From NCBI GenBank assembly GCA_040954595.2, contig CM082590.2:7006001-7070000 (forward strand): a DNA stretch of 64,000 nucleotides. The letters run 5' to 3'. Below the pieces are notes generated by a model that was not told the DNA's origin, made no database searches, and worked only from the letters and a program-made list of their open reading frames with translations. This document shows, one piece after another, positions 15,846 through 64,000 of the stretch; position 1 is the stretch's first letter; every line of letters begins with the position of its first letter. The translations under genes and the position numbers were made by a program. This DNA comes from Balanoglossus misakiensis. Taxonomy: Eukaryota; Animalia; Hemichordata.

Positions 15846-18800
15846 CTACCAAGGCAAGTTTCTTATCGATTCAACAGCCTCGACTACATCGCGTTGGCTA
15901 CTTGGATTGTTCTGTGGCATATCTCCAAACCGCTGACTGGTCCCGTAGCTGGTGTTCGCCATGGGATGTTCAGTGCCGTAGTTCGGATTTGAATTTGCCG
16001 GATGTTGCGGCCGGTACTGTTGTCCTGCGGAATTCTCCCGGTGTTGTGGGTAGTTACGCTGAGTCCAAGACACCTGCTGGGGCCTGAAGACGTCCGGACC
16101 GGCCGGGGTGCCTGAGTTGAGGGCTGGCTGGGCTTGCAGGTTTCCCATGTGGGTCTGGTTCTGGTTGTAGTTATGCTGGACTGTGGTCGGCTGGACGCCC
16201 TCGAGGTGGTTGCGGTTCTGGGCCACTGCGATCAACATCGTCGTCGTCGGGTGTGGCGAGACACTGCTGTGGGTGTGAGTAGGTACTGTGCGTGTCTGTT
16301 GCGGTTCCACTTGCACAAGCTGTATTTGGTTTTTGCTGGCTGGCGTCGCCTGGCTGTGGTTTACTGACGCTGGCTGGCTGTGACTTACAGATGTTACCTG
16401 GTCCTTTACTACAGGTGCCATCTGGCCTCTGTGTACTGGCACCACCTGGTTGTGATTAATTACGGCATTCTGGCTCTCACCTTGAATATGTGTTACTGGC
16501 GAAATTTGCTCCAGGTTTACTGGAATCACCTGGGTAAGATTTATGGGCTGTTCGATTCTGTCACCTTGTTTGACTGGCGATTGTGTTCCCACAATGCTCT
16601 GGGGTCCTCCCACAATGCTCTGGGGTCCACTTCCTGTGTCTGGTGGAACTGTCGTGTCGTTTCCTTCAGTCTCGCGATGGCTTGCTGACTTTTCAATGTT
16701 AGACGGGCTTTCAGCTGTTTTGCTTGATTCTGTTTGATCACCTGGTGTAGAATTATCTGTTGATTCTCCACCCTGCACATCTGTGTTAGTCTGTTCTCGC
16801 GTTTCATTGGCTGCCGGGCTATTTTGTCCACCTGGCTTTGGATTAGTGTCTTTGATCCTGTGCGTCCGCATGTGCACGCGCAGGTTGTCCTGGCGACTGT
16901 ACCGCCTCCCGCACACGCCGCACGAGTACGCCTTCTCGCCCGTGTGAATCAACGCGTGGCGGTGGAGGTGCGACAGCGTGTAGAACGAGGTGCCGCACTC
17001 GGCGCAGGTGAACGTCTTGGAGACCTCACCCCGGTGCCGCTTCTGGTGCTCGGCCAGGTTGGTCCGCGACTTGAACTGGGAGCCGCACGACTCGCACACG
17101 AACATCCTCTCCGTGGTGTGCGTCAACACGTGCTTCTGGAGGTCGTATTTGGTATAGAAAGCTGCCGTGCACTGCGTACATTTGAACGGTCGTTCGTCCA
17201 CGTGTGTCGCCTGATGCCACTTCAGTCCACCCTCCGACACGTACCCTTTCCCGCATTTCTCGCAGTGGAATAATTTCTCTCCCGTGTGAATGGCCACGTG
17301 CGATTCCATGTGCAGGAGCCCGTGCGACGGCTTCCCGCAGATCGGGCAGGTGTAGCGCTTCTTGCCGTGCTGCGACTTCTGGTGCATGCAGAGGCAGGCC
17401 ACCGAAGCGAACTTCTCGGCGCAGTCGCCGCACGCAAAGACCTTCTCTTCGTCCGAGGCGTGCTTTTCTCTATGTATACGAAGCGCTAGTTTCCGCGTGA
17501 AGACCTGACCGCAACTCGAACACTTGAACGGTTCCTTGCCGCCGGGAGTGTGGAACTTCTTGACGTGCCACTCGTACTGGTTGCGCTGCTTGAAGCCCTT
17601 GCCGCAGTCCGTGCACGCGTGCTTGGAATCCTGCGAGTGCGTGGACAGGTGCTCGCGAAGATGGAACGGCGACTTGTAGTTATTCCCGCAGACGTCGCAC
17701 GTGAAGGGCTTCTCGTCGGTGTGCGAGAACGAGTGCCGGTTCAGGTGCCACTTGTCCTTGAACGTCTTGGAGCACGTCTCGCACCGGAAGACCTTCTTCT
17801 CCGGGCGCTGCGTCTTCGCGACTTTTCTACCCGCGCCTCTCGTTTTCCTCGCTCGTTTCACTCTGCGCGGCGCTCTGTACGTTTTCTCGTCGCTGTCCGT
17901 GCCGATATCATCTTCGTCGTATCGCAAGTTCTGTTGAGTTCTCTTCAAACTCGCCTTCCTCTTCTGTGCCCCCTGCAGGTTGGAGGTTTCCTCAGCCGCC
18001 TTTCGCTCCGACTTCCGAACCGGACGTTGTTCTTTCGTCTCCGATCCCTGATCAGTTCCCTCCTCGGGGCTCGCACACCTTTTCTTTAATAAGCTTCTTG
18101 TTACTTTTCTACTAACCTCTACACTTGATTTGCACACATCTGAAGTCTTGTCCTCTCCATTTCCTATGAAAGAACAAACACAAGGTGAGATAATGGAAGA
18201 CTTTATTTGCACTGGTATTTATTTCGTTGAAGACACAATTTTGAATATGATGGAATACTGATTCACTAGAATTTTTTTCGCTGAAAACACAATTTTGGAA
18301 TTTACATTGTGATTTTATATTTCTGCAATTTCTTGTGCAAAGAATGGGAAGTGGGAATTTTCACTGGGATTTTATATTATGTGGACTGAATAGCTTGAAT
18401 TGAATATCCAATGTTTATAATCATCTTGGCCTGATAAAATTACCAGCAAAGACGGCCTGAGTGTTGACTCAGCTCTCAAAGTATATAACATTACACTGCT
18501 TGATACCAGTTCAAATCCTCCATGATCACAGGAGCAGTATTGACATGTGTGTGTGTGCCTTTGCCATGATTGCAGTGCCTGTGTTTCAACAAGACCTCTT
18601 GAGTTTACTTTTTATCAGAGATTAGGCGCATTATAAATTGTCTTTATCATCATTATTATTATTATTATGCCTGGTACTCCCCAGTGTTTCATCTAGACGG
18701 GGGGATAGGGATTCACCCCCAAGGTGGAACCAGTGCCCCTAAAATAATGTCATTCACATGTTGAAGATATTACAGATCCCCCTTACCAGAGTGGAATCCC

Positions 18801-41421: not shown

Positions 41422-43659
41422 ATGGCTGCAGGAGGTAGTCCTGTGAAACCCAGAGTGTCCACCATGAGGCGGAGAATACAGGAGGACTTCCTGCACTGCG
41501 GGATCTGCTTCGAGGTCTACGAGAACCCCAAATGCTTGCCCTGCCAGCACTCCTTCTGCCAGACGTGTCTGGACAAGCACGTCAAGGCCGGGGCGCGATT
41601 CAAGTGTCCGCTGTGCAACCAGGACTGCGTGGTCCCCGAGGGAGGGATCGCCAAGCTGCAGCCCAGCTACCTGATCAAGCAGCTGCAGGACATCATCATC
41701 CACCGCGACCCGGTCGCCGACACCAAATGCGAGATCTGCCAGATCCACCGCACGCAGGCGGTGTGCGTGGACTGCGTGCTGAACATCTGCGCCGACTGCT
41801 CGAACCACCACAAGATAATACCCACGACCAAGAAGCATCGAATCTTCACTCTAGAAGAGTACGGTTCAGCCAAGGCGAACGATAAGTCCCTAGTGCAACC
41901 GATGGTGTACTGCTCCACGCACAAACAGGACGTGCTGGATCTCTACTGCGAGAAATGCCAGCACCCGGTGTGTATTCGCTGCTCGCAGGACGAACACAGC
42001 ACCCGGGGACACAAATGCGTGAGTCTCACAAGCGTAACCGAGAAACACCAACTGGGTCTGTCCGAGGTACTGGCCCGCGTGGCAACCAAGAAGACCACAA
42101 ATTCCTCGCGCAAGAGCAACTCCGAGCAGATGATGGAGCTGATAGAACGCGAATACCGCGACGAGTGCTCGGCGATCGACGCGCACGCGCAGGAAACCAT
42201 GGCCCGGGTGAACGCAGAGAAGGACAGACTCCTACAGACCCTGACAACCAAGTTCGAAGAGAACAAAGACATGCTGCGGCAAGAAATCAGCCTCTTCGAC
42301 GAGAGCGGTAAGGTCATCGACGAGGTGATCACGAGTATAAACAATCTGAAACAATACGGCAATGCTGCTCAGGTGGTCTCCTCGTACCCTATGGTTCAAC
42401 AGTACACATCTCAGTTGTTCTCCGCAGCCATTCCTTACTTCACAGACGTCTGCAGCTTGCCTAAGTTCAGCCCCAATGACCGCACGACAAAGATCGACAT
42501 CGGCTGTATAACGTATGACACAATAGCTGCTGATAGTCTCGCCTTGAGATGCAGGCCCCACAGAAAGATTAAAGTCGGGGAAGATATCCATTTAGAAATT
42601 ACGGCCGGTGATCCGAAAGTCGTTCGGAAAAAAACCATGATTAGTCGGGAGATTGTGGGAACTCTAACCGACTCTGACGGCAGTGCAAAAGTCTTGGATA
42701 TCATAGAAAGTCAGGAAGACGCAGGCAATGAGACCCATGTGTTGAAACTCCAGTGCCTAACCACTGGTAAACACAAGGTATTCGTCAAGTTAAATAAACG
42801 CAGCATCGAAGGTTCCCCGTACACTGTCAGTGTCTCGCCAGCGTGGCAGAGGGTCGAGGTGATCGGGGGTGAGGGGGACGGGGTCGGGGAGTTCATCCTC
42901 CCTCGCGGCGTCGCCCAGGACAAGAGAGGGAAACTCTTAGTGGTGGATACCGGGAATAAGAGAGTCCAGAAGCTGAATCCGAAGAAAGGCCACAAGAAGA
43001 TTCTCAACCTGGTGGGGTTGAATCGGCCCATACTGCCGCACGGCATAGCCGTTTCTTCCCTCAATGAGTACTTCATTACAGACGCCAAGAATAACAGGGT
43101 AGTTGTTTGCGACAGGAAGGGCAAGGTGATCGGTTGGTTCGGGGAGGCCAAACTTCGCGTTCCGTGGGGAATCGCTATCAACGAATCACTCGGCTACGTG
43201 TATATCGTTAACAACGGCATGCACTGTGTTGCCGTATTCGGCAAAGAAGGTGGAAAATACAGCTTCCGGAAATCCTTCAGTACCGAAGGAAACGGTCTCG
43301 GCCAGTTAAGCAGCCCGCTGTGCGTTGCCATAAACAGCAAAGATCAGGTGCTCGTGTCAGACCGGGATAATCACCGAATCCAAGTGTTCGAGGCGGAAGG
43401 CAAGGCCCTGTTCGCGTTCGGAAGGAAAGGGGATAGTGAGGGGTGCTTCATTTGTCCGGAGGGGGTGGCCGTGGACAGGGAGGATAACATCTATGTCTGC
43501 GACTGCTATAATAACAGAGTGCAGAAGTTTGATGACAGAGGGAGGTTCGTCTGTTGTATCAGTACCTCCTCCCAGCTCCGCGACCCTCGGGGTGTCATGG
43601 TAGACGACTCGAACAATGTCATTGTCACTGATGCTGACAAAGTGCATATATTTGCTTAA
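41422..43659 (+). CDS. TRIM-NHL E3 ligase (TRIM2/TRIM3/TRIM71-like): RING, B-box1, B-box2, coiled coil, filamin, NHL repeats (745 aa, single coding exon)
   Basis: RING CGIC..CQHSFCQTC..CPLC; B-box CEIC..CVDC..CADC; B-box CSTH..CEKC..CIRC..H; filamin end GKHKVFVKLNKRSIEGSPY; NHL repeats F.LPRGVA, LSSPLCVAINSKDQVLVSDRDNHRIQVF, PEGVAVDREDNIYVCDCYNNRVQKF. An acceptor at about 41345 implies upstream UTR exon(s). Confidence 0.93.
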   Translation: MAAGGSPVKPRVSTMRRRIQEDFLHCGICFEVYENPKCLPCQHSFCQTCLDKHVKAGARFKCPLCNQDCVVPEGGIAKLQPSYLIKQLQDIIIHRDPVADTKCEICQIHRTQAVCVDCVLNICADCSNHHKIIPTTKKHRIFTLEEYGSAKANDKSLVQPMVYCSTHKQDVLDLYCEKCQHPVCIRCSQDEHSTRGHKCVSLTSVTEKHQLGLSEVLARVATKKTTNSSRKSNSEQMMELIEREYRDECSAIDAHAQETMARVNAEKDRLLQTLTTKFEENKDMLRQEISLFDESGKVIDEVITSINNLKQYGNAAQVVSSYPMVQQYTSQLFSAAIPYFTDVCSLPKFSPNDRTTKIDIGCITYDTIAADSLALRCRPHRKIKVGEDIHLEITAGDPKVVRKKTMISREIVGTLTDSDGSAKVLDIIESQEDAGNETHVLKLQCLTTGKHKVFVKLNKRSIEGSPYTVSVSPAWQRVEVIGGEGDGVGEFILPRGVAQDKRGKLLVVDTGNKRVQKLNPKKGHKKILNLVGLNRPILPHGIAVSSLNEYFITDAKNNRVVVCDRKGKVIGWFGEAKLRVPWGIAINESLGYVYIVNNGMHCVAVFGKEGGKYSFRKSFSTEGNGLGQLSSPLCVAINSKDQVLVSDRDNHRIQVFEAEGKALFAFGRKGDSEGCFICPEGVAVDREDNIYVCDCYNNRVQKFDDRGRFVCCISTSSQLRDPRGVMVDDSNNVIVTDADKVHIFA

Positions 43660-47038: not shown

Positions 47039-50000
47039 CTAGACATGGAGTTTGAAATATTTCTTTCTGATCTGTTCAGGAATTTCAATGACATGCATGT
47101 GGTATTTTGCTATCATATCTACTAGGCCATTCCTCTCAGTTTCCGACATTGCGTCCAAAATCTCCTCGTTTGCGAGCAATTTCATTTCTTTGACTACGAA
47201 GGCTGGACCCTGCGATCTGTCGGATCCGTATATATTCACTGTAGGCCTGTCACTGAAAAGCGGTTGGGGGACTATTTTCTGCGGCGGAGGAATCACCACA
47301 AGTTTTAGACTCGGCACTCTCTGGCGCATTGATTCTTGAATTTGCTTCACTGTCTCGACAACTCGCGCATAATCATCTTCCGGGGGCGCGATTGGGGGGA
47401 GGCTGAATTCTCGCAAAGTCTCGTTCGATCTCATCGAATCACGGAAGCATTCGATGGCCTTGAGATCAATTTGTATGGGTTTGTTATTAAGCGTGTCCCA
47501 GACCACAGTTTCAAGAGCTGCCCCATCTTTGCTGTGAACCAGACCGGACAGACAATTCAAAACATCGCTGCTCATCGGGCCGTTGTATCGCATAAACAGT
47601 CTATTCAAAGCCTTGTGGTGACTCACCGCACGCAAGACACTCACAACCAACTCGCCTATGTCATCGGAAAAGAAAATCGTGAGAGACCTAAGGGTGCTAT
47701 TTCTGTGCAGAACATCGCAGATGCCACCGCTTTGCTGCCCTACGGTGACACTGAACTCCTCAAGTGAGTCGTTAATTTCGAGAGCCTGGAAGAGGGGCGT
47801 GACATCCGGACAACACGCGGTCGGGATCGGGCCAACACCGAGAGACCAGAGTTTGAAATATGCCAATGTTTTGTTTTCCTCTAGAGCCTCCCTAAGTGGA
47901 GCGAAATCGATGTCCGCACCGGGAGGGATACCTAACAACAGGAAAGACAGCTTTTTCAAACTCTTGCTGTCTCTTAAAACTTCCCCTAAGCTCTCAATCA
48001 GTGGCTGTTCTGGGATTGTGAGCACCGAGCGAACTTGTAGGTCTAACTCTTCAAGTGGCGCGACTTTGAACAACTCCAGGGGAAGGTTCGGGAACGGGAC
48101 GACTGGCGAGGACAAATTCAAAACGAGGCTGAACTTGCCTCGTTCTGAGTTACCGTTCAGGCCTTCAGTTACCTTGGCGACCGACGCGCACATGATTTGA
48201 TCGACTTTCTCGTCGGAATCCGTATTTTTCATTCTGAAAAAGTTCAGATTTACCTCTTTAATGCTGGTGCAGCGTTCGATTGCTGATGAAACGGCGTTTG
48301 TTTGCAACGGGTCAAGAAATATATCGGTCTCCAACGATTCAATCGCGGTATCTCCAGACAACTGAGCGAGCACGTCCGCGCACAACTCCGGGTCGAACAT
48401 CCTGCCCATGATCAATTTACGAACGCCGCCCCGATTTTCAGAATGGGATTCGGGGCTGCTCTGGAGAACGGAGCCCAAACCCTGCAGAGATTGCTGGTCG
48501 AGGTGGAGATTCACAGGCGCGTTCTCAATCTGACGCTGTTCATACTCAGAATGAGTGAAGCTGTAACCGCGATATGACGTAAGATTCAATGTCGGCGGTA
48601 AATGGCTGGCCACAATGCGTGCTAGGGAGTCCCCATTTCCTGTCTCGTGGAGACATGCTAGGGAGCTTAGTAGGAGCCGCTCAAATCTAGCCCTGTCTGA
48701 TTTATGCTTGTCCAGGTTTTCTGCATACTCGCGAAGAATTGGACTCGCGTCGGCTTTTAACAAACCGCTAGCAAACGAGCAGACGGCGAAATGTTCGTTT
48801 TCGAGCAACTCGCGCATGTCTGTCGCCGCGTCCCCGCCATTTTGGATTTTCGAAGTGATGTAGAAGCCCGCGAAGTATTCTTGGAACGTTTTATGTAGGA
48901 AGTTGCACGTTTTCGATCTTTTTATTCTCGAGACTCCGACGTCTTTCGTTAGAAACCCTGTAAGAAGCAACTCGTCGGGTGTGATTTCTGACTGCTGAAA
49001 TATCAGCCTGTTTTCGCGCAATCCCCGCCACGCATATTCGCCGAGTTTGCATAATTTCTCCGTGATGTCGTCTGGAACTTGGTCGCCATCTTTGTTGACG
49101 ACCTCTGATCTGTTCGCGACGTAGGATTTCGTGATCGCCAACACGAGATCGGCGTATAAGTCAGTAACGGTGCTGGGCAGATTTCCGGCGTTATCCTCCC
49201 ACAAAACACAGAGCAAGATCGTGTTCAGAGGAGTCTGACAAATCTCTGACAGAACACGCTTTGATCGGACCTCCTGAATCAAACTTTCTGCTGTCCCCTT
49301 TCTATCTTTGAAGTAATTACAAATGAAATTGTCCCTGTCTTTTGGCGAGTATCCAGTAATTCTCAAATTCGGGTGGCAAAATTTCAAGATGGCGTCAAAT
49401 TCGTGCGGGCGGGAGGTCACAACGACGGTACTCTCGTACATAGTTTGGCCCTGAATCAATCTATTAAGGTCACTGTCTAGCAATATTTTAGGATCAACTT
49501 CGTCTAATCCGTCTACGATAAACAAGAGATTTTTCGATTCAGTCAAGAGTTCAGCCCAAAGCTCGTCTTGTTTGAATTTATTTTTGTACTCCTCGGGGAA
49601 TTGATCAAAGATGGCGTCTGCGATACTTCCGCTGAAATCTCTCATCTCTAACAGAAAAGCGGCGCTAAACTGTGGCAATTTCCCACAGGCCCATTCGTAT
49701 AGGATTTTCTGACTGAAGGTACTCTTCCCAATGCCCGGGGAGCCCTCAACCCTCACCCGTCTCGGCATCCGGGCGCTTTTCGCGATCGTCCCGAACAAGT
49801 CAGACACCTTCAGCGGGAAAGCGTCCGACAAGCGCCCTCTACGGTCCTTCTCCGTAAACTGCAGGTTGGTGTAGACGTCGTTGAGGGGCAGGAAGAAGTC
49901 GTGGCACCATGGCAACGGCTGCACTTCGGAAAGTCGCGATCTGTAGAATGTCCGCAGGTAGTCAGACACTTCTTTGATGATGAAAGATGTAGGTATTGGC

Positions 50001-51229
50001 TGTTCTGTGGAAGGAATGATGAGATGGAAATCATGATAATAATCAATTCTTACTTAATTCTTTACACGTGATCTGGCCATGTGACCCATGGTGATGTCAA
50101 ATCCAGGTGACGGACAAGCAATATTTCAGCATCCAGTAAAAGTTTTTCAGAGTATTTTTTTTACTTTAAGTTTAAAGCCACCTGACGAGGCTAGACACGT
50201 AACATGTATCAGGTATGGTGCCTTATCAGCCTCATGGAGTTTCGTTGGCACAGTCTAAGTCAGGACCACGTTGCTGAAGTTGCCTGTCATCTGGAAATTT
50301 GAATGCGAACGTAACTGCCACCTGAGCGCGTCTGACGTCATTTGATATCAAAGAATAGAAATGATACCATAGCAGACCCATTTTGTGGTTGTACAATAGA
50401 AAAATAACATATCTGTTTTGGATACATGTACAACTGTCCCTAAATACAATCGATTGATCAATCCTTGAAAGATCACCATTGTCACTGAGCAATTTGTATT
50501 ATGATAATTATCTGATATAATCCAGATATTTCCTTTGTGATGTGTTCTCCAGGAGAGTTAAAGGGGAAATCCGGCCTAGCTGATTTCTACATAATGTGGT
50601 AGCTTTGAGGTCACTCTTTCAGAAAAAAACATATTCGCCATGTATAAGTCGAGCGAATATGTTTTATTATGAAAGAGTGACCTCAAAGTTACCAAATTAT
50701 GTAGAAATCAGCTAGGCCGGATTTCCCCTTTAAGTTTAAGTTTAAGTACTAGTACTAGTATTCAAAACGGAGTTGAGAGTTGAAGTCTTCTATTTCAAGT
50801 TCCAAGATTCAAAATTCATCCCAGAAATACCACTCACCACTTAAGTTTCCCTCTGCAAGAAAACGGTGAAACTTCTTCACCAAGTCAACCCTGGGAAGCG
50901 CTTCCAGGAGGCTGATGAAAGTGTCATAGTTGCCAGGCAACGCCACACCCATCTGATGCAGCTTGAAGAAGATGTCTCCAGCAGACATAGACTCTGTCGC
51001 GTCCCCGGGCACTAATATCCCACACGACAGACAATGGCGCTTCAAGCTGTTTAATTCGTCTGAATAAAAGTGAAAAAGGGCACACAATTATTAAGAGTCA
51101 GAACGTAACATACAAGGGAAGAGGGGGGGGGGAGTTAAGGGGGGGGGGAGGTTGGGTCAGAGAGAGCAAACGAGCGAGAGACAGACAGACAGAGCAAGAG
51201 AGAGATAGAGACAGAGAGAGAGAGAGAGT

Positions 51230-53721: not shown

Positions 53722-56700
53722 TTAGTCCATAGTCTCATCGGGAACAAATCTCAAACTGACGCTGTTTATGCAAAATCGCAGACCGCTGGGTGGGGGACCG
53801 TCGTTGAAGACGTGGCCAAGATGAGAATCACACTAAAAAAAAAAAAAAACGAAAAATAAAATAAAATAAAATAAAAACAGACTTCAGCAATCGATTCTTT
53901 GATTGGCACACACGACAGGGCATGTTCTGATTTGACCTCAAGGGGGCGCATTTCGAACAGAATCGCTTTTATTACATGCTTTACAGGTGTGCGTGTGTAT
54001 AGTGGCCACCTCTATATAGTGGCCACCTCTATATAGTGGCCGCTTTGTTACAGTCCCTGTGCAATTTACATGTACATTAATTGACCTGTCTATAAAGGCC
54101 AGCTTAGGAAAGTCCCTTGACTGGCTGCTAATGCTATAGACAGGTTTGACTGTACATTAATTGACCTTTCTATAAAGGTCACCTGTCTATAAAGGCCAAC
54201 TTAGGAAAGTCCCTTGACTGCCCCTATAGACAGGTTCGACTGCATATGTATATGTAATTATGTATAATGAATAAATTATACATAACTGCATCATACACAA
54301 ATTACTCTGAAGGGAATGGCTTTATTTGAAAGGTTGGGCAGACTATCAGACTAATTCTCCTAGCGCAGCATACCAGCGTTCACAGGCAGATATTTTTGGC
54401 CAGTCCTGCATCAGTGTGCCTTCTAAACCCATTTGATGTTCCATTAAAGGGACAAAGTCTCTCACTGCCTTTTTCCCATTAATTCTGTTTGATACAAGAC
54501 ACTGTTTATGTTATTCTACATGTGGATATATCATGAATCAATGTTCCACCACATACAGCTTGAATCCCACTTGTAGACACGAGAGTGAAAAACTCACCAA
54601 AATGAATAATTGGTGTTTACCATTTATTCATTTAGAATAACATAAACTTGTCTTGTATCAAACATAATTATTGGAAAAGGGGCAGCAAGAGAGAGACTTT
54701 TTCCCTTTAACTCAACAAACTCACGGGTGTCTCAAGAAATGATCAACACTACACGCAAAGGTATAGGGCTGACTCAGAGAAATTTCTAGAAATCCTCAAA
54801 TTGACTAAAGGCGCCTTTATAAATTATGTTGTTAAGAGGGCGTGCTATCCTGCGCATCTCACCTGTTTACAGAGTACTTCTGTCCTTCTCATGCCGTGCG
54901 AGTTATCTGACCGTCTCATGACATTCGCCTCGGACTCGTCCAGACCCTTGGCACCGATGGCCGCAGTGAACGACGGCCAGCCACACCCAGAATCATACTT
55001 GGTCTCTGAGCTGCAAGAGAACATGTAGCTCAGATCAACAAATTCTGATTTACAAACTTAACCCTTTCACCACTATGGTTCAGTCCAAATTCATTGTTTT
55101 CTATGGTAAGGTTGGACCTCTATAAAGGGAACTGGGGGTGAAAGGGTTAAAGTAATGTTAATTAATGTCTAGTTGTCTTTTTCAGTACTTTTTTCCAGTG
55201 TATCAACTCAGGTTTCTTTTTTCTACTCTGGATAGAATTCAAGTCCAGGGAATGGTTCACCATGCAAAATTGTCACAAATTTGAAATTCAAAACAGCTTT
55301 TTGAAATTAGTGTATACTAATTACTATGCATGCAACTATCCTCCAGAAATTACCAAGGATACAAAGTTTAGACTAGTTCAATCAGAATAGGGGAGACAGC
55401 ATTACTAAATGAGGGTGAACTGACCTGAATAGATCACTATCACAGCACACGCATTTGTAAACACCCTCTTCATCATTGCTGTAGTATTCTCCACTGAAAG
55501 GCTGAAAGAGGTCAAAGGTTATTCAGTTTCTGTATGTAAGTGATTTCATGTCACCTTGGCTGTAGCACCTGTAATGTATGACTGCATTAAAGTTGTATTC
55601 TGATTCAATATAAAAATCATGGCTTATTTTTATGACACAATATCATCGATGTGGGATATTTCTACGAGAAAACTATGTGTGTTTTATCAAAAACCTCTGC
55701 GTATGTCGAGCCTTTTATTTTGTGTCTGGCAAATTTTTCTTTGAGAAGGGAGGACTAGTCATTTTGCTCACTGACAAGCGCATACTACCTCAACCCTTTC
55801 ACCGCAAATGGTTTGGTCCAAGCCCATTGTTTTCTATGGTAAAGTTGGACCTCAAGAAAAGGAAATAGGGGTGAAAGGGTTAAGAAAAACCTTGCTCATT
55901 TATACTATCTTCCTAGCCTGGTCACCATACCCAGTGTGTTTTAGATACTGTAAAACACTTTATTTTCACGAGCAATAAATTTTCACAAAATACGCGAGAG
56001 CCAAAATAGTGTGAAAATAAAAAGTCGCATAATTTTTTTTGAAGATATAGATGCAGTGAATGAAATAAGAGAACGTGAAAATTAATACTCGCGAAACAGT
56101 GGCCTCTCTCGATATCGCGAAAAATTTTAACTCGCGAAAATAAAGTGTTTTACAGTAGACTCACACACACCTTGTGTGCGAGTCTATCTAGAATACACTG
56201 TGTGTGAATCTATCTAAAACACACTGGGTATGCTGACCAGGCTACCATCTTCCCCAAACACTAAATTTCCTTGAAATCCACCAGCTTACCTCTTCAGTGC
56301 CTTTTTCCCGGCATACATAATACTGCTCCGGAGTCAATTTCTTCATCCATTCAGAATTAGGAACATCATTGTAAGGACTCCTGAAAACTATATAACAGTA
56401 TCACAATGAAAAACGGATTGAGCTGCAAAGAAGTCTGATGGACAGGGACATATTTACATCATAATAGACTGATTTTTTCGTTCATACAGGTACTCCTACG
56501 GCATGACTGCACATATCGATTTTTTGGAAAATGCTATCGATTTCATTTGGTATCAGATGACTGAACCACTGGAACTTGTTTCATGTTTTTTCACTTCAAT
56601 TTTTGCAATTTCTTTGGTTATGTATATTTCCACATGAAAATAGTTCTTTAAGAATGAATAAATTATTAACGAAGATACAATGCTCCAACTTTGATGACAG

Positions 56701-56954: not shown

Positions 56955-57574
56955 ATTGATTTTGTTATGGTCGTTTCATTAGACCCTCTAAGTATTCGTG
57001 TAAAACGCTATTTTGAATCCCCTAGGTTATCCAATATTATCTACAATAATCTGACCCTTGACCCCTGACCGTCTACACTGTGTGACGCAGAAAAAAAACT
57101 ATAGTGACCGTTATTCAAGCGTTTTTGTGATTTCTCTTATTTATTTTGGCTTTTATACGTCTTGGTATTTGTATATCAGCTTATTTCAAAGTTACCACAT
57201 ATACAGCGTACTGCATGTCCTAGTATGTAAATGAGGGACTTATGATAGCACGCCCCCAACGACTAGCTTTTGAAGTGAGCTGCACTAAGGGAGCCTTCAG
57301 TATTTATAGGGGGGGGGGGTGGCCAGGGGGAATCAAAGGAGGGGGGGGGGGGTCACTTTTTACAAACCAATCTTTTGGGGGAGGGTCACTTTTTACAAAC
57401 CTATCTTTGGGGTTGGGTCACTGTTTACGGCTGAAAATGCCTGATCACAAAATCACCAATCAGTATTCTCCCCAGGAAAGACAAGCTGAAAGAAAAACAT
57501 GTAAACACAACAAGACAACAGTTTCAGACCACTGGCCTTTAACTGGAGATTCTACTCAATTACACATCAGTGCG

Positions 57575-57604
57575 ATCATCATCATCATCATCATCATCAT
57601 CGTT

Positions 57605-57635
<31 letters not shown>

Positions 57636-57646
57636 CCGCCATCATC

Positions 57647-57678
<32 letters not shown>

Positions 57679-57783
57679 CATCACCGCCATCATCATCACC
57701 ATCATCATCATCATCATCACCATCATCATCATCACAACCACCAACACCACCACCCACGCCGCCACCACCACCAAAACCACCAA
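57575..57783. repeat. (ATC)n/(ACC)n trinucleotide tract
   Basis: Direct reading; explains the poly-D, poly-M, poly-S and poly-I ORFs. Confidence 0.95.
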
Positions 57784-58002: not shown

Positions 58003-58211
58003 TTAAAGAGGGAAGGAAGCAGCGTTATGTGTCTTACCGCGATCCAATCTGATTAAAATCAGATGTAGGGAACGGCGACGTGTGAGTCGTGGCAGTAGCG
58101 TGAGGCGACAGCATAAAAAAAAACACGTCGCCGTTCCCTACATCTGATTTTAATCAGATTGACCGCGATCCATCACCGTAAGACATACAGCGCTGCCTCC
58201 CTCCATCTTAA
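58003..58211. mobile_element. Nested hairpin elements: inner element 58045-58161 with 9-bp TSD ACCGCGATC inside a TTAA-flanked hairpin
   Basis: TSD at 58036-58044 and 58162-58170. Inner TIR CAATCTGATTAAAATCAGATGTAGGGAACGGCGACGTG. Confidence 0.8.
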
Positions 58212-58498: not shown

Positions 58499-60955
58499 AT
58501 GGCGACGCCGGCGATTGGATTTGACCTGTCGAATGCCACCAGGACTACTCCAGAGAGAGTCAACCATGCCAGACTTTGTCGACTTTTAATAGAAGGGGGT
58601 ACGCAGACTTTGAGGGGAGTCTTCGATGACATCGTTGCACCAGGTGGCTTGGAGTCTAAGTTGCGTCAACCAAAAATCAGGCACAGTTTGGAGATGGTGA
58701 AACACAAACGTATTATCAGTAAAAAGGAATGGGAGATGTTATATCCAACCGACCCAAAGAAACGCGTGACATCCGAAGACTTCGACATAACACTTCTGGT
58801 CGTCCTGCTGAGGAACCGTCCCCTGTGTAAGCTAAAACAGCCACCGACGTCGTGGGATCGTCAACCAAAGGTAACTGACCTCTCTAAGCAGGCCGACCTA
58901 GTTCGAGTCAAGCTGTTCAGGAACAAACTGTTTCACGGCAAAACGACCAGCGTGCCCGATGACGAGTTTGAGAGGGAGTGGGACCAACTCGGCGCTGCTT
59001 TGGTCCGCCTTGGCGCCAGACGAGATGCCATCGACGACCTCAAGACAGAGCCAATGGACTGCGAACTTGAGCGGTTCTACGAGCTTCAAATCGACGAGTG
59101 GCTGGCCCAAGAAACGGAGCTACGAGACGAGGTCGGTGACCTGAGGGAGAAACTGGACAAGCTCCTCCAAGAGACAACACACAGCGAGGAATACAACTGT
59201 CGCAGCCACCATAAAGAGATCGTGAGGTTTTTCTGTTTGAACTGTGAAATTCCAATTTGTATGACGTGCGCGTATTTCAAGCACAACGTCGACGAACACA
59301 GACACCGAGATCTGGGAGACGCGGCCGCAGAATTTCGCCAGTTGATGGAGCCCATACTCGAAAACTTGAACCAGCATCATAGCGTTATCTCGGGGCATGT
59401 TGCCAAGGCAAATGAATTGTTAGAGTCTTTGAAGTCGCAATACATCAAGCAGCTACAGTCGATCGAAACGCATGCACAGCGCATGGTGTTTGTTGGTGGC
59501 AGGTCGATCAAAGATCAACGAGACGAATTAGTCACCGTGCTTTCTGAACTGCACCAAAGCATGGAGTGTGACCTCACCGAAGATAAGCAAGAATTACAGG
59601 GCAGAACACACCTACTTAAGGAAACGCTTGATTCGTTGCAAAGCCTACTGCAGAACCAGAATGATGTACAGCTGATGTGGAAATATTCTGATATCAGGGC
59701 CATGGTAGAAAAAGTTATGCATGTGGATATAACGTTTGCCAAATTTCACGATCTATTGGCAGAATTTTCGCCCGCCTTCGTCGGAGGCAAGCTAGGGGCG
59801 CTTGTGTTGCCAGCGTTACCGTCTACGTGCTATATCTGCAGTGCGAATTTGCCGAGTACCCTCAGGTTGGGAGATAAGCTCTCAGTTGAGATACAAGCAG
59901 AGAATTATCTCGGGGAACAGATTGAAGATGTTGACGAGCTGGAGGCAACGCTGAAGGGCAGTGATGATCAAATTGTTAGACTGGAGAAAAATAAAATTCC
60001 ACGCGAGAGTGCAGGTGTTTCGATTAACTACACCATCAGAAAGGAAGGTAGGCACCAGCTCTCGGTAAAACTTCGAGGCCATCATATCCAGAATTCTCCT
60101 CACCTGTTCCAGGTTAACCCCTCATGGAAAATAAGAACCATTCCATGCAGGCAAGACATGCCACTGGAACTACTCCAGATTCCATGCTCGATGAAGATCA
60201 ACGAAGACGGCGATATCCTCGTGACGGACTGCGACAAGAACAGGGTCCTCATTCTTGGTTTGGATGGCACTGTGGTCAAACAGATCACGGTGTTAGGGCC
60301 TCTGTTCCGTCCGGCAGACGTCGCTGTTCTTCACGGGGTCTACTTCGTGTCGAACAAGAACGACCAGTATCCGGTGGTTGCCTGCGACAAGACCGGCCAG
60401 ATAGTCGGATGCTTCGGTCAGAGCAGACTGCGGCACGCCTGCGGGATCGCCGTAAACGGCGACTTGGGTATCGTCTATGTCTCCGACGCCGACCACCACG
60501 CCGTTTTCCTCTTCCGCTGCGACAGCGGCGACTTCGTCAAGCGATTCGGCGGGAGAGGCTCGGCCCCCGGCCAGTTCATCCTTCCTTACTACCTCGCTAC
60601 AAACAGTCAGGGCCATCTCCTTGTCTCTGACTTCGGCAACAATCGCATCCAAGTCTTCAACGCCAACGGGGAGTACATCTTTCACTTCGGCAGGCGGGGG
60701 GTCGGCGACGGAGAGTTCAGTTCCATCCGAGAGGCCAAAGTGGACACGGACGACAATATCTACGTCTGCGACTCCTACAACAGCAGAGTGCAGAAGTTCG
60801 ACAAGAAGGGTAAATTTCTACACTGCATCATTACAAAGAAAGACCAGATCAATTGGCCAGTCAATATAGAGCTGGTTGACGGCAGAGACAACCAGATTTT
60901 GATATACGATTGGGCAGATCTCAACGTTATCAAGTGTTATCACAGAATTGCTTAA
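58499..60955 (+). CDS. HEPN (DZIP3-like), B-box, coiled coil, filamin, NHL protein (RING-less TRIM-NHL-like, 818 aa, intronless CDS)
   Basis: N-terminal NHARLCRLLIEGGTQTLR..FDITLLVVLLRN..WD..P...DLS..ADLVRVKLFRNKLFH matches the DZIP3/hRUL138-like HEPN pattern (RNxxxH at 58919-58936). B-box CRSH..CLNC..CMTC..H..H; filamin EGRHQLSVKLRGHHIQNSPH; NHL repeats LVSDFGNNRIQVF and IYVCDSYNSRVQKF. Confidence 0.9.
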   Translation: MATPAIGFDLSNATRTTPERVNHARLCRLLIEGGTQTLRGVFDDIVAPGGLESKLRQPKIRHSLEMVKHKRIISKKEWEMLYPTDPKKRVTSEDFDITLLVVLLRNRPLCKLKQPPTSWDRQPKVTDLSKQADLVRVKLFRNKLFHGKTTSVPDDEFEREWDQLGAALVRLGARRDAIDDLKTEPMDCELERFYELQIDEWLAQETELRDEVGDLREKLDKLLQETTHSEEYNCRSHHKEIVRFFCLNCEIPICMTCAYFKHNVDEHRHRDLGDAAAEFRQLMEPILENLNQHHSVISGHVAKANELLESLKSQYIKQLQSIETHAQRMVFVGGRSIKDQRDELVTVLSELHQSMECDLTEDKQELQGRTHLLKETLDSLQSLLQNQNDVQLMWKYSDIRAMVEKVMHVDITFAKFHDLLAEFSPAFVGGKLGALVLPALPSTCYICSANLPSTLRLGDKLSVEIQAENYLGEQIEDVDELEATLKGSDDQIVRLEKNKIPRESAGVSINYTIRKEGRHQLSVKLRGHHIQNSPHLFQVNPSWKIRTIPCRQDMPLELLQIPCSMKINEDGDILVTDCDKNRVLILGLDGTVVKQITVLGPLFRPADVAVLHGVYFVSNKNDQYPVVACDKTGQIVGCFGQSRLRHACGIAVNGDLGIVYVSDADHHAVFLFRCDSGDFVKRFGGRGSAPGQFILPYYLATNSQGHLLVSDFGNNRIQVFNANGEYIFHFGRRGVGDGEFSSIREAKVDTDDNIYVCDSYNSRVQKFDKKGKFLHCIITKKDQINWPVNIELVDGRDNQILIYDWADLNVIKCYHRIA

Positions 60956-61976
60956 AGGGACAAAGTCTCTCTCTCACCGCCCTTTATCCATTAATTTTTT
61001 TTGATAAAAGACACTGTTAATGTTAATGTACAAGTGAATGAACATTCAACCACACACAACTTCCATCCCTCTTATAGACAGGAGAGTGAAAAAACTCACC
61101 AAAATGAATAATCGGTCTCTACCATTTTTCATTTTGGCGAGATTTTTACTCTCATATCCTACAAACGGGATGGAAGTTGTGTGTGGTCAAACATTCATTC
61201 ATTATATCCATATGACAGCACGCCCCAAACGACTTACTTTTGAAGTGTTATTAAATTTGTTTTTAAACTTTGCAGTGCGGACAAACAGTTCAGATAGTGT
61301 TGTCAGTGTCTGGCTAAATAATTTAGACCCCGACAATTCTGATTGGTCAGTTGAAAAGTTAGAAATCATCTCTTTACTAGAGAATTCGAGCAATATATTA
61401 GTTTTGGAATTTGATTGAACATTAAAACTCTACTCGTTGGTAATTAGAGTTGGTTGGTTAGCTTGTTGACTGACTGACTGACTGATTGATTGATTGTTAA
61501 ATAAAATGTAAACAACATGGAACTATACTCTTCTGTTGAAACATTGTCTGCTAACTACACCAAGTTACCTATGATCAGCATACAATTTGACAAGCTGTGA
61601 CCATGGTAACCAGTGTAAACATGCATGCGATTCCTAAGACACAAGCATTCTGAGGCCGCAGTGGATACTGAATGACATTCCAACGTCTGCTAAATAACCC
61701 CGGTAAAATAACAACCTCCCGATTTGTAATTAGTCGTCGGATTGCTAATTAGCACACAAAATATGTCAACGACGGCGGTGGACTTTATTCACAAAAAGAG
61801 CCTGCATGGCGTCATTTCCGGTCCGAAACCAGTACCGACTGTGGTACTACTTGCAGCTGTCTGGCTATCTCCCATCAGTTTATCGCGTACCTATCCGGGG
61901 CAAGCGATAAAACCTCCCTGTTCACTGACGTACTGACTCATTTAAGCGTACACGATACACCCGTATCACTTCCATC

Positions 61977-64000
61977 ATGGCGACTGCGGCCCCGGTTCCA
62001 TTCGGCCTTGCAAAGGAATTCGAGACAACCCATGAGAGGACGAATCATGCAAGATTGTGTCGGCTTCTACTTGAGGGCGGCGCCAAGGCACTCCGTGAGG
62101 CATTTAACAAAATACACCCATCAGGTACTTTGGTGGGTATTCTGGCTACCAACAAGGCAACCGTTAACAGTAATTTGCTGATGAAGAAAATTATTAACAG
62201 ATCCCAATTCGATGTACTTTACCCTCAGCATGGAGCGGTAACCTCAGAGGACTTTGACATCAGTCTATTGATGGTCCTATTGCGGAACATCTGTTGGCTG
62301 CAACGTCCAGTAACTGGCTGGGATGCTAAACCAGCAACAACTGATCACAGTATGGAGGCCGATATGGTACGTATTAAGTGTTACCGAAACGAACTGAGTC
62401 ACATGAAAACAACAAGCATTTCTGATGTTGACTTTGAGGCCAAGTGGCTTGAGATCAGCGAGGCTCTGCAACGTCTGGGTGCCCGGAAAGACGACATTGA
62501 TCACCTGAAAACCGTTGCCATGGACAGTGAACTCGAGAAGACGCTCTTGGATAACTTGGCAACGTGGACTGAGAGTGACATGGATGTGAAGATGCAGGTC
62601 AGGGAAATGAGAGGCGATGTCAGTGAAATGAGAGGTGACGTCACTAAGATTAAAGGTTTGCTGGAGAGTCGCCAAGACGGACAAGAAGCTGAGAAAGAAA
62701 CCACGGCACAACATGAGAAGGACTTAAGTGGTCGAGATGCAAATGCTCTGAAATCAAACCGCAAAACTGTGAAACAACACCTGGACGACACACGTGAGAA
62801 TCAGCAGAAAGCTAAGGACACCTTGCTTGGATTACAGTGGCAATACTATCGTCAGCGGCGAATCATTAGGGAACACGCCCGCAAAAGGCTATGCAGCGCC
62901 CTCGTGAGGAAGGACCAGGAAGCAAGACTAGTCGCAAAATTAACCGAGCTGTATGGACAGATGCGCGACGATGTTTCAAAAGACGAGGAACGACTGCGCA
63001 GAACCGAACAGAGACTGAAAGACATTCTACACAAGGTAGACGTGCACATACAAAATGCAAATTCTGTCACTTTTTTGTGGAACAGCAGCGACATCAAGCA
63101 GTCTGTGGAGGAGGCACGTAACACGCACACCAAATTCAATATGTATTGTGACGTCGTCGCTGAGTTCTTTCCCGGGCCTTATTTTTCGGACACGACATTC
63201 GGGTTTCTGCTGTTACCAGCCATGCCAGCCACGTCTATCGTCGCTGCAGAAACCCCCCTTGATCTGATAAGGCTTGGAGACCAACTGTCATGGCATATCG
63301 ATATTAAAAACTATCGCGGGGACACAGTTTCGGACTGCCCCGATCTTGTGGTAAATCTCAAAGATGGCGACAACCAAACACGTGTGCTTAACATTCAACC
63401 GACGGAGGGCAGCGTAACAATTGATTCCCAAGCGGAAGGGAAGAGACGCATCACTTATAAAACTCAAACAGAAGGAACACACGAACTAACTGTAACTTTG
63501 CGTGGTTACAACGTCCTCGGCTCTCCGTGCGCGTTTGAAGTGCCGCCATCTTGGAAATTCACCGAGATACCGTTTCGAGTCGATACATGTTCACCTAATT
63601 TATCCCGACCTTGCGGCATGCAAGTGGATACATCTGGAAACATAGTTACTGCGGACCGTGACACAGGCAGGCTGATCATATTAAATAAAGACAGGAGACG
63701 AAAGCGTGACGTTAAAGTGAAACTCGAGAAATTTCTACCAGTCGGTGTGGCCGTGTATGGTGACGACGAATATTTGGTAACAAACCAAGATGCTGAACGT
63801 CCAGTTCTTTTATGCAATATAGCCACTGGGAAAGTGCTTGTCTTTGGGGAAGGAAGGTTAGTAGAGGCAAGTGGCGTGGCAGTTAACTTCGGCAAGAAGT
63901 TCATCTACGTATCGGACATACATCAGCACAAGGTCTTCATAATCCGTAGCACCACAAAGAAGTGCTTCGTGATATTCGGCGCCAAGGGGGCAGAGCCTGG
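61977..64000 (+). CDS. Second HEPN (DZIP3-like), coiled coil, filamin, NHL protein, 3'-partial (open to window end)
   Basis: Not in the ORF track because it has no stop in the window. Hand translation from ATG 61977 is open for 674 codons: MATAAPVPFGLAKEFETTHERTNHARLCRLLLEGGAKALR..FDISLLMVLLRNIC..GWDAKP..ADMVRIKCYRNELSH (RNxxxH at 62385-62402), coiled coil, EGTHELTVTLRGYNVLGSP, NHL LSRPCGMQVDTSGNIVTAD. No B-box. Confidence 0.88.
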   Translation, partial: MATAAPVPFGLAKEFETTHERTNHARLCRLLLEGGAKALREAFNKIHPSGTLVGILATNKATVNSNLLMKKIINRSQFDVLYPQHGAVTSEDFDISLLMVLLRNICWLQRPVTGWDAKPATTDHSMEADMVRIKCYRNELSHMKTTSISDVDFEAKWLEISEALQRLGARKDDIDHLKTVAMDSELEKTLLDNLATWTESDMDVKMQVREMRGDVSEMRGDVTKIKGLLESRQDGQEAEKETTAQHEKDLSGRDANALKSNRKTVKQHLDDTRENQQKAKDTLLGLQWQYYRQRRIIREHARKRLCSALVRKDQEARLVAKLTELYGQMRDDVSKDEERLRRTEQRLKDILHKVDVHIQNANSVTFLWNSSDIKQSVEEARNTHTKFNMYCDVVAEFFPGPYFSDTTFGFLLLPAMPATSIVAAETPLDLIRLGDQLSWHIDIKNYRGDTVSDCPDLVVNLKDGDNQTRVLNIQPTEGSVTIDSQAEGKRRITYKTQTEGTHELTVTLRGYNVLGSPCAFEVPPSWKFTEIPFRVDTCSPNLSRPCGMQVDTSGNIVTADRDTGRLIILNKDRRRKRDVKVKLEKFLPVGVAVYGDDEYLVTNQDAERPVLLCNIATGKVLVFGEGRLVEASGVAVNFGKKFIYVSDIHQHKVFIIRSTTKKCFVIFGAKGAEP

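Follow-up and report, generated by a model that had tools for sequence, protein, structure and literature searches.

Two adjacent RING-less TRIM-NHL genes with an N-terminal HEPN domain in the hemichordate Balanoglossus misakiensis: candidate clustering-activated immune ribonucleases

A 64,000-nucleotide stretch of the Balanoglossus misakiensis genome (GenBank assembly GCA_040954595.2, contig CM082590.2, positions 7,006,001 to 7,070,000, forward strand), hereafter the window, carries near its end two adjacent genes, gene 1 and gene 2, that join a DZIP3-type HEPN domain to the body of a TRIM-NHL protein. They belong to a conserved hemichordate family that appears to be undescribed and has a counterpart in corals, in which a known immune-type HEPN stands on a known TRIM-NHL body. 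We give about an even chance to the view that these RING-less proteins are immune sensor-effectors, in which a predicted ribonuclease (RNase) would be turned on only upon clustering at a ligand that the NHL propeller binds; judged from sequence, an immune RNase role of both genes is plausible.

Gene 1 is a single open reading frame (ORF), in which the HEPN is followed by a helix with a heptad pattern, a single B-box, a TRIM-type coiled coil, a filamin repeat and an NHL propeller (Table 1). Gene 2 was read for 674 amino acids up to the window end (ORF 61977-63998, + strand); its Filamin and NHL matches were slightly below the Pfam cut-offs, the NHL being cut by the window end, and no B-box was found in it by Pfam. 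An earlier note on this DNA had described two adjacent intronless genes sharing one coiled-coil, filamin and NHL body; the body is indeed common to both, although gene 2 is without a B-box, and the absence of introns holds for all of gene 1 and for the part of gene 2 up to position 64,000. Gene 2 is likely a quicker-evolving paralogue that has lost B-box control. A 21-nucleotide tandem duplication at 62598-62639 adds one extra heptad to the helix after its HEPN.

The profile search that the earlier note had suggested placed a DZIP3-like HEPN at the start of both genes, as it had claimed, with PF18738 scores of 142.5 bits for gene 1 and 160.8 bits for gene 2 against a curated cut-off of 27. The genes are also RING-less as described, since no RING profile was matched in either, whereas zf-C3HC4 was matched, in the same Pfam scan, in the ordinary TRIM gene at 41422 of the window; NACHT likewise had no Pfam match in gene 1 or gene 2. 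The further statement that the HEPN sits exactly at the RING position of that TRIM needs amendment, because the HEPN and the following helix together occupy the place of the RING plus B-box 1. Genes 1 and 2 have neither of these two domains, and therefore no E3 ubiquitin ligase activity is expected of them.

Both HEPN domains contain a putative catalytic motif, RNKLFH in gene 1 and RNELSH in gene 2, at exactly the coordinates claimed, and both motifs fit the HEPN RNase signature Rx4-6H with a polar residue after the arginine. Of 361 proteins collected, 228 had a HEPN, and 12 of the latter also carried a B-box, filamin or NHL (9 of these 12 had gone into the local profiles, and another 2 are near-duplicates); the conservation check proposed for RNxxxH came out in favor of the motif, as the R..H pair was kept in 12/12. 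In an alignment of family members (A4), R, N and H were invariant in 9/9 rows; the spacing was Rx4H in hemichordate sequences and Rx5H in those coral sequences that were aligned. Among all HEPN domains collected, 223/242 retained Rx4-6H, and R and H, at 95% each over the 242, were among the most conserved polar columns; their invariance in the 107-row alignment A5 was not counted as evidence, because motif-less rows had been left out of it. The conservation of R and H fits selection for catalysis. It also weighs against a rival explanation, unlikely in our estimate, in which the HEPN is an interaction module whose partner, a HEPN-NLR or the paralogue, would join it in a heterodimeric active site that is thereby formed, tuned or blocked. 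Such pairing would be in keeping with the finding that HEPN stands in for Death/DED adaptors on NLRs (10.1101/2025.07.21.665930), with the heterodimerization of the paralogous TRIM2 and TRIM3 (PMC9732051), and with the adjacency of gene 1 and gene 2.

The gene 1 HEPN was modelled as a helical domain with confidence (predicted local distance difference test, pLDDT, 94.5), the fold beginning at about residue 18. Its best structural match was Csm6 (Z 6.8, root-mean-square deviation 3.8, 114 residues aligned), followed by a viral protein (Z 5.8) and AbiF (Z 5.3). Twelve of the top 50 structural entries are what we take to be HEPN-family members, labelled in part after PMC3710099. By Foldseek, the model had no structural match at E<=0.001, and the HEPN sequence returned a single chance match and nothing else from the PDB. 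A homodimer prediction (two copies of residues 11-226) scored 0.01 against a mark of 0.32 with no alignment used, and counts neither way.

Relatives of the two genes occur in three genomes of acorn-worm type as well as in corals. A full-length relative of gene 1 in Ptychodera flava (P0037, XP_070546620.1) is 58% identical over 817 amino acids and has the same domains, although it is annotated as TRIM2-like only; P. flava also has two shorter gene models with HEPN and B-box (P0161, P0164). Glandiceps talaboti has a protein with HEPN, two B-box/coil units, filamin and NHL (P0157, XP_077996586.1), in which the unit may have been doubled internally or through the merging of two genes, and a further relative (P0160). 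In the coral Stylophora pistillata, two proteins combine HEPN, filamin and NHL with a weak or absent B-box (P0167, P0308). A protein from outside these named species, P0170 (HEPN, coil, filamin and NHL), is coral-like by its position in the tree. A P. flava protein of a different kind, P0290 (XP_070546788.1), has a DED (E 1e-14) joined directly to an NHL propeller, and could be either a death-effector version of gene 2's sensor or a mis-joined model. Judging from the contig size of 23,068,089 given for each, P0037, P0161, P0164, P0290 and a RING TRIM (P0289) of P. flava likely lie on a common scaffold.

P0037 came from a search with the body of gene 1. A profile search over 1.84 billion representatives gave 10,265 matches, of which the best 150 were considered; Pfam was run on 30 of the 150, picked by match span, and subsequently on another 11 proteins. 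The word-based searches were incomplete, and the distribution of the family is thus a lower bound. A HEPN-only homologue search gave 31 matches among 2214 candidates and missed the P. flava relative; an alignment-based HEPN search gave 63 matches, of which P0308 was the only new fusion protein. Feature searches of the ESM Atlas, which holds clusters of at least 50 members, returned generic TRIM-NHL clusters scoring under 0.9 or none.

The HEPN tree was built from 45 rows out of 240 domains, a set with no known hemichordate HEPN-NLR. Seven hemichordate-type rows were set apart from the rest by one branch (88/89, not starred), the fusions from corals fell among coral HEPN-NLR domains, and a single HEPN group of coral and hemichordate fusions was rejected by the approximately unbiased test (p 0.0003; P0176 joined the group after the first tree). 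In the NHL tree (14 rows, with no coral RING TRIM among them), four hemichordate HEPN proteins and P0290 formed a clade (100/99), within which gene 2 was sister to the DED-NHL protein (99/97). A rejection of NHL monophyly (p 2e-5) was discarded because the DED row, which nests within the HEPN rows, had confounded the test; with P0290 included, a common origin of every NHL linked to a HEPN was not rejected (p 0.245), and the NHL tree therefore gives no support for convergence. It is thus the HEPN tree only that favors independent fusion events in the coral and hemichordate lines. The sister position of P0290 suggests that the effector on this propeller lineage is exchangeable, provided that the P0290 model is correct.

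RNase L is an assembly-activated HEPN/KEN RNase, and serves for genes 1 and 2 as a functional analogy only. A bolder version of the proposal, which we consider possible but doubtful, is that animals have repeatedly replaced the TRIM-NHL RING by a HEPN to obtain an RNase-L-like immune nuclease, separately in hemichordates and corals. TRIM-NHL would then be an NLR-like scaffold, a single propeller sensor lineage with RING, HEPN and DED as exchangeable effectors, and its antiparallel coil would hold the nuclease inactive up to the point at which it is clustered by some polymeric structure of an invader.

Between gene 1 and gene 2, the HEPN is 52% identical, while the other parts are at 29-36% (NHL, 35%). 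The motif had been described as retained despite strong divergence elsewhere; it is present in both copies, but the whole HEPN, rather than the motif alone, is the best-kept part. Better conservation of the HEPN than of the NHL between paralogues fits a common effector with differing specificities. Between gene 1 and its P. flava relative P0037, the values are 74% for the NHL, 52% for the HEPN and 42% for the coil, and 24 of the 30 positions on the top face of the gene 1 NHL are identical; a conserved ligand is therefore indicated.

Differences between the window and contigs of one sample, which are probably alleles, were examined against a synonymous expectation of about 22%, by a binomial test that ignores transition bias. 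Among those listed for gene 1 (40 rows; 123 further), 13 of 21 coding differences were synonymous (p 2e-4), and among those listed for gene 2 (40 of 68 rows), 16 of 37 differing codons were synonymous (p 6e-3), all indels preserved the frame and the catalytic motif had no difference. Gene 2 is the more variable, with 21 of these 37 codons changing the amino acid; in its residues 10-55 (62005-62139), 11 of 15 differing codons are non-synonymous, partly near an ambiguous gap. The synonymous excess and the frame-preserving indels, together with reading frames that stay open for 818 codons in gene 1 and for at least 674 in gene 2, the full-length P. flava relative and the related Glandiceps protein, make it very improbable that the genes arose by a recent neutral fusion of domains or are pseudogenes in decay, which could otherwise be suspected from the missing B-box and amino acid changes of gene 2 and from the truncated gene models of several relatives.

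The conserved propeller face would also suit a housekeeping or developmental mRNA-decay enzyme, in which the NHL selects host mRNAs or a ribonucleoprotein, like Brat or LIN41, and the HEPN cuts locally. TRIM-NHL proteins are known mRNA repressors in the sources consulted, and Las1 is a housekeeping HEPN RNase (10.1101/760058). We nonetheless assign this alternative a low probability, in view of the scattered occurrence, the tandem paralogues, the truncated models, the loss of the B-box, the immune association of the HEPN donor family in the literature consulted and the existence of a DED-bearing sister protein.

Viral RNA, which the earlier note had named as the NHL ligand, was not borne out by the propeller. 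Seven RNA contacts are named for zebrafish LIN41, namely R564, R581, R611, K628, D629, Y658 and R676 (PMC5908797); in blade register (that of blades 1-2 being inferred), 2/7 are kept in gene 1 and 1/7 in P. flava P0037. Only 4 of 30 top-face residues in gene 1 are basic, compared to 9 in the TRIM71 segments examined, and the propeller as a whole has no net positive charge (31 K+R against 32 D+E). The top Foldseek matches were the NHL domains of TRIM2, Thin and TRIM3 (E about 1e-18), and Brat-like RNA binding by TRIM2/3 is doubted (PMC9634614). It is on these grounds distinctly unlikely, as a sub-case of the sensor-effector proposal, that direct binding of viral RNA by the NHL clusters the protein and thereby switches on the HEPN for antiviral RNA cleavage, even though Brat and LIN41 NHLs bind RNA, RNA binding by TRIM56 is tied to influenza suppression (PMC9634614, PMC5908797) and the gene 1 face is aromatic-rich (6/30). 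Because NHL RNA-binding faces vary widely and are unpredictable (PMC5908797), gene 1 may use another mode of RNA binding.

In the sensor-effector mechanism that we propose, the coiled coil would, by analogy with other TRIMs, form the usual antiparallel dimer, holding the two HEPNs apart and inactive. The NHL face would bind a multivalent ligand, for which a conserved protein assembly or a conserved microbial structure appears likelier than a LIN41-type RNA hairpin. Clustering would then join the HEPNs of adjacent dimers into a two-motif active site, perhaps assisted by the short heptad helix, and the resulting RNA cleavage could stop translation or destroy invader RNA. The general premises, already set out in the earlier note, are found in the literature: HEPN nucleases require two juxtaposed motifs (10.1101/760058), TRIM25 dimerizes through an antiparallel coiled coil that places the RINGs at its two ends (PMC5076470), and TRIM21 is activated by clustering (10.1101/2020.07.28.225359). 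RAZR, a bacterial HEPN RNase, becomes active when it assembles on phage rings (PMC13017515); with it and with TRIM21/TRIM5 clustering our proteins would share the logic of a latent HEPN and ligand-driven assembly, as a functional analogy in which homology is limited to the HEPN superfamily.

This mechanism is favored by the retention of the motif, the best structural match of the HEPN model being Csm6, the relatives in P. flava, Glandiceps and Stylophora, the synonymous excess and the DED, a death-fold effector, on the propeller lineage of gene 2. The setting is also of immune type, in that an NLR-like gene lies between these genes and the RING TRIM and the HEPN family is immune-associated. 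Several points weigh on the other side. The structural Z-scores are modest for a helical domain and under the tool's reliability level for helical bundles, and the literature searched contained no RNase test of any DZIP3-type HEPN. The NHL is the best-conserved part of gene 1 relative to P. flava, which is atypical of an arms-race sensor; few copies were found per genome, in contrast to the large NLR expansions; and the DED-NHL protein comes from a gene model in a database, whose prediction could have been mis-joined.

In corals and oysters, HEPN_DZIP3 is the domain most usually joined to the N-terminal side of NACHT (PMC8260672, PMC9646362), and HEPN-NLR expansions have been described with RNase activity as a prediction only (PMC9646362, PMC8260672, 10.1101/2025.07.21.665930). 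These DZIP3/hRUL138-like NLRs of corals, oysters and amphioxus (PF18738; also PMC3710099) share with genes 1 and 2 the HEPN family, its N-terminal effector place, the R-N-x-H motif and the predicted RNase and immune role, but use a NACHT-LRR/TPR sensor-oligomeriser instead of a TRIM coiled coil and filamin-NHL. Conversely, class VII TRIM-NHL proteins (TRIM2, TRIM3, TRIM71/LIN41, Brat, Thin) have the same body of B-box, coiled coil, filamin and six-bladed NHL, but genes 1 and 2 have the HEPN instead of RING and B-box 1, and the LIN41 RNA pocket is not conserved. Among the DZIP3-HEPN fusions in the accessible part of PMC3710099, none is listed with B-box, filamin or NHL. The nearest published architecture is HEPN+TRADD-N+filamin+beta-propeller, tabulated for two Stylophora records, along with DED-bearing equivalents, in a 2021 supplement (PMC8195603). 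These proteins likewise have an N-terminal HEPN and a C-terminal filamin and beta-propeller, and are discussed among animal counter-invader systems; they differ in being cnidarian table rows with TRADD-N and, in the accessible part, no B-box or coiled coil listed. The HEPN theme had therefore already been glimpsed in print, and the claim that the architecture lacks a functional description, although it stands for the hemichordate family, somewhat overstated its novelty. In the literature searched, with some supplements and subscription journals outside reach, neither a description nor a functional test of the hemichordate HEPN TRIM-NHL family was found.

DZIP3-type HEPNs rank with the most frequent partners of coral and oyster NLRs. 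The compact single-exon genes and well-understood activation of the scaffold make the question of a clustering-activated RNase directly testable for an animal HEPN. If the proposal is true, TRIMs serve as nucleases besides ubiquitin ligases, invertebrates own an RNase-L-like arm of an architecture unrelated to the vertebrate one, and a Trim-Away-like tool that cuts RNA upon clustering is suggested.

Table 1. Genes, domains and motifs in the window (positions count from its first nucleotide; aa, amino acids)
Feature	Position	Strand	Details
Gene 1 (P0001)	58499..60955	+	Single ORF, 818 aa: HEPN/helix/B-box/coiled coil/filamin/NHL, without RING
Gene 1 HEPN_DZIP3	58646..59080	+	Pfam PF18738 aa 50-194, E 1e-41; modelled fold from ~aa 18
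Gene 1 RNKLFH, Rx4H motif	58919..58936	+	R141, N142, H146
Gene 1 post-HEPN helix, heptad pattern	59060..59164	+	aa 188-222
Gene 1 single B-box (zf-B_box)	59192..59308	+	aa 232-270; Pfam E 1.9e-5, above cut-off
Gene 1 TRIM-type long helices/coiled coil	59312..59719	+	aa 272-407; predicted helices
Gene 1 Filamin repeat	59822..60100	+	aa 442-534; Pfam E 7.8e-8
Gene 1 NHL beta-propeller	60140..60946	+	aa 548-816; Pfam matches and Foldseek
Gene 2 (P0002)	61977..64000, open at window end	+	HEPN/helix/coiled coil/filamin/first NHL blades; without RING, without B-box
Gene 2 HEPN_DZIP3	62124..62540	+	Pfam PF18738 aa 50-188, E 2.4e-47
Gene 2 RNELSH, Rx4H motif	62385..62402	+	R137, H142
Ordinary TRIM	41422..43659	+	RING/B-box1/B-box2/coiled coil/filamin/NHL by Pfam; RING at 41497-41616
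NLR-like gene	47039..51087	-	Long NACHT exon (ORF 47039-50053), NACHT E 1e-25
MsrB (methionine sulfoxide reductase B) exon	54845-55057	-	Pfam SelR, E 1e-12

The earlier note had called the 41422 TRIM a neighbour of the two genes. A RING TRIM does lie there, but 15 kb from gene 1, with the NLR-like gene and the MsrB exon between them, and at 27% identity it is a distant paralogue. As the direct parent of gene 1 it was rejected, on account of the 27% identity and because the two are not sisters in the NHL tree. In the NLR-like gene, a probable upstream exon at 50809-51087 (- strand) resembles DED (E 3.3e-4, below the cut-off), and we infer that the NACHT exon and this DED-like exon belong to one gene; its C-terminus is LRR-like by eye, with no Pfam LRR match. 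By tblastn, there was no third HEPN in the 64-kb window.

Several repeats flank gene 1. A perfect 39-nucleotide inverted repeat at 58045-58161, about 340 nucleotides upstream, has very high contig depth and is MITE-like (miniature inverted-repeat transposable element). A high-copy repeat at 60950-61250, with inverted arms at 61035-61201, begins at the gene 1 stop codon, and a 37-nucleotide piece of it recurs at 57241. A long (ATC)n microsatellite at 57575-57780 gives rise to spurious low-complexity ORFs. Further away, an ORF of 513 amino acids at 15846-17387 (- strand) encodes C2H2 zinc fingers with a low-complexity tail.

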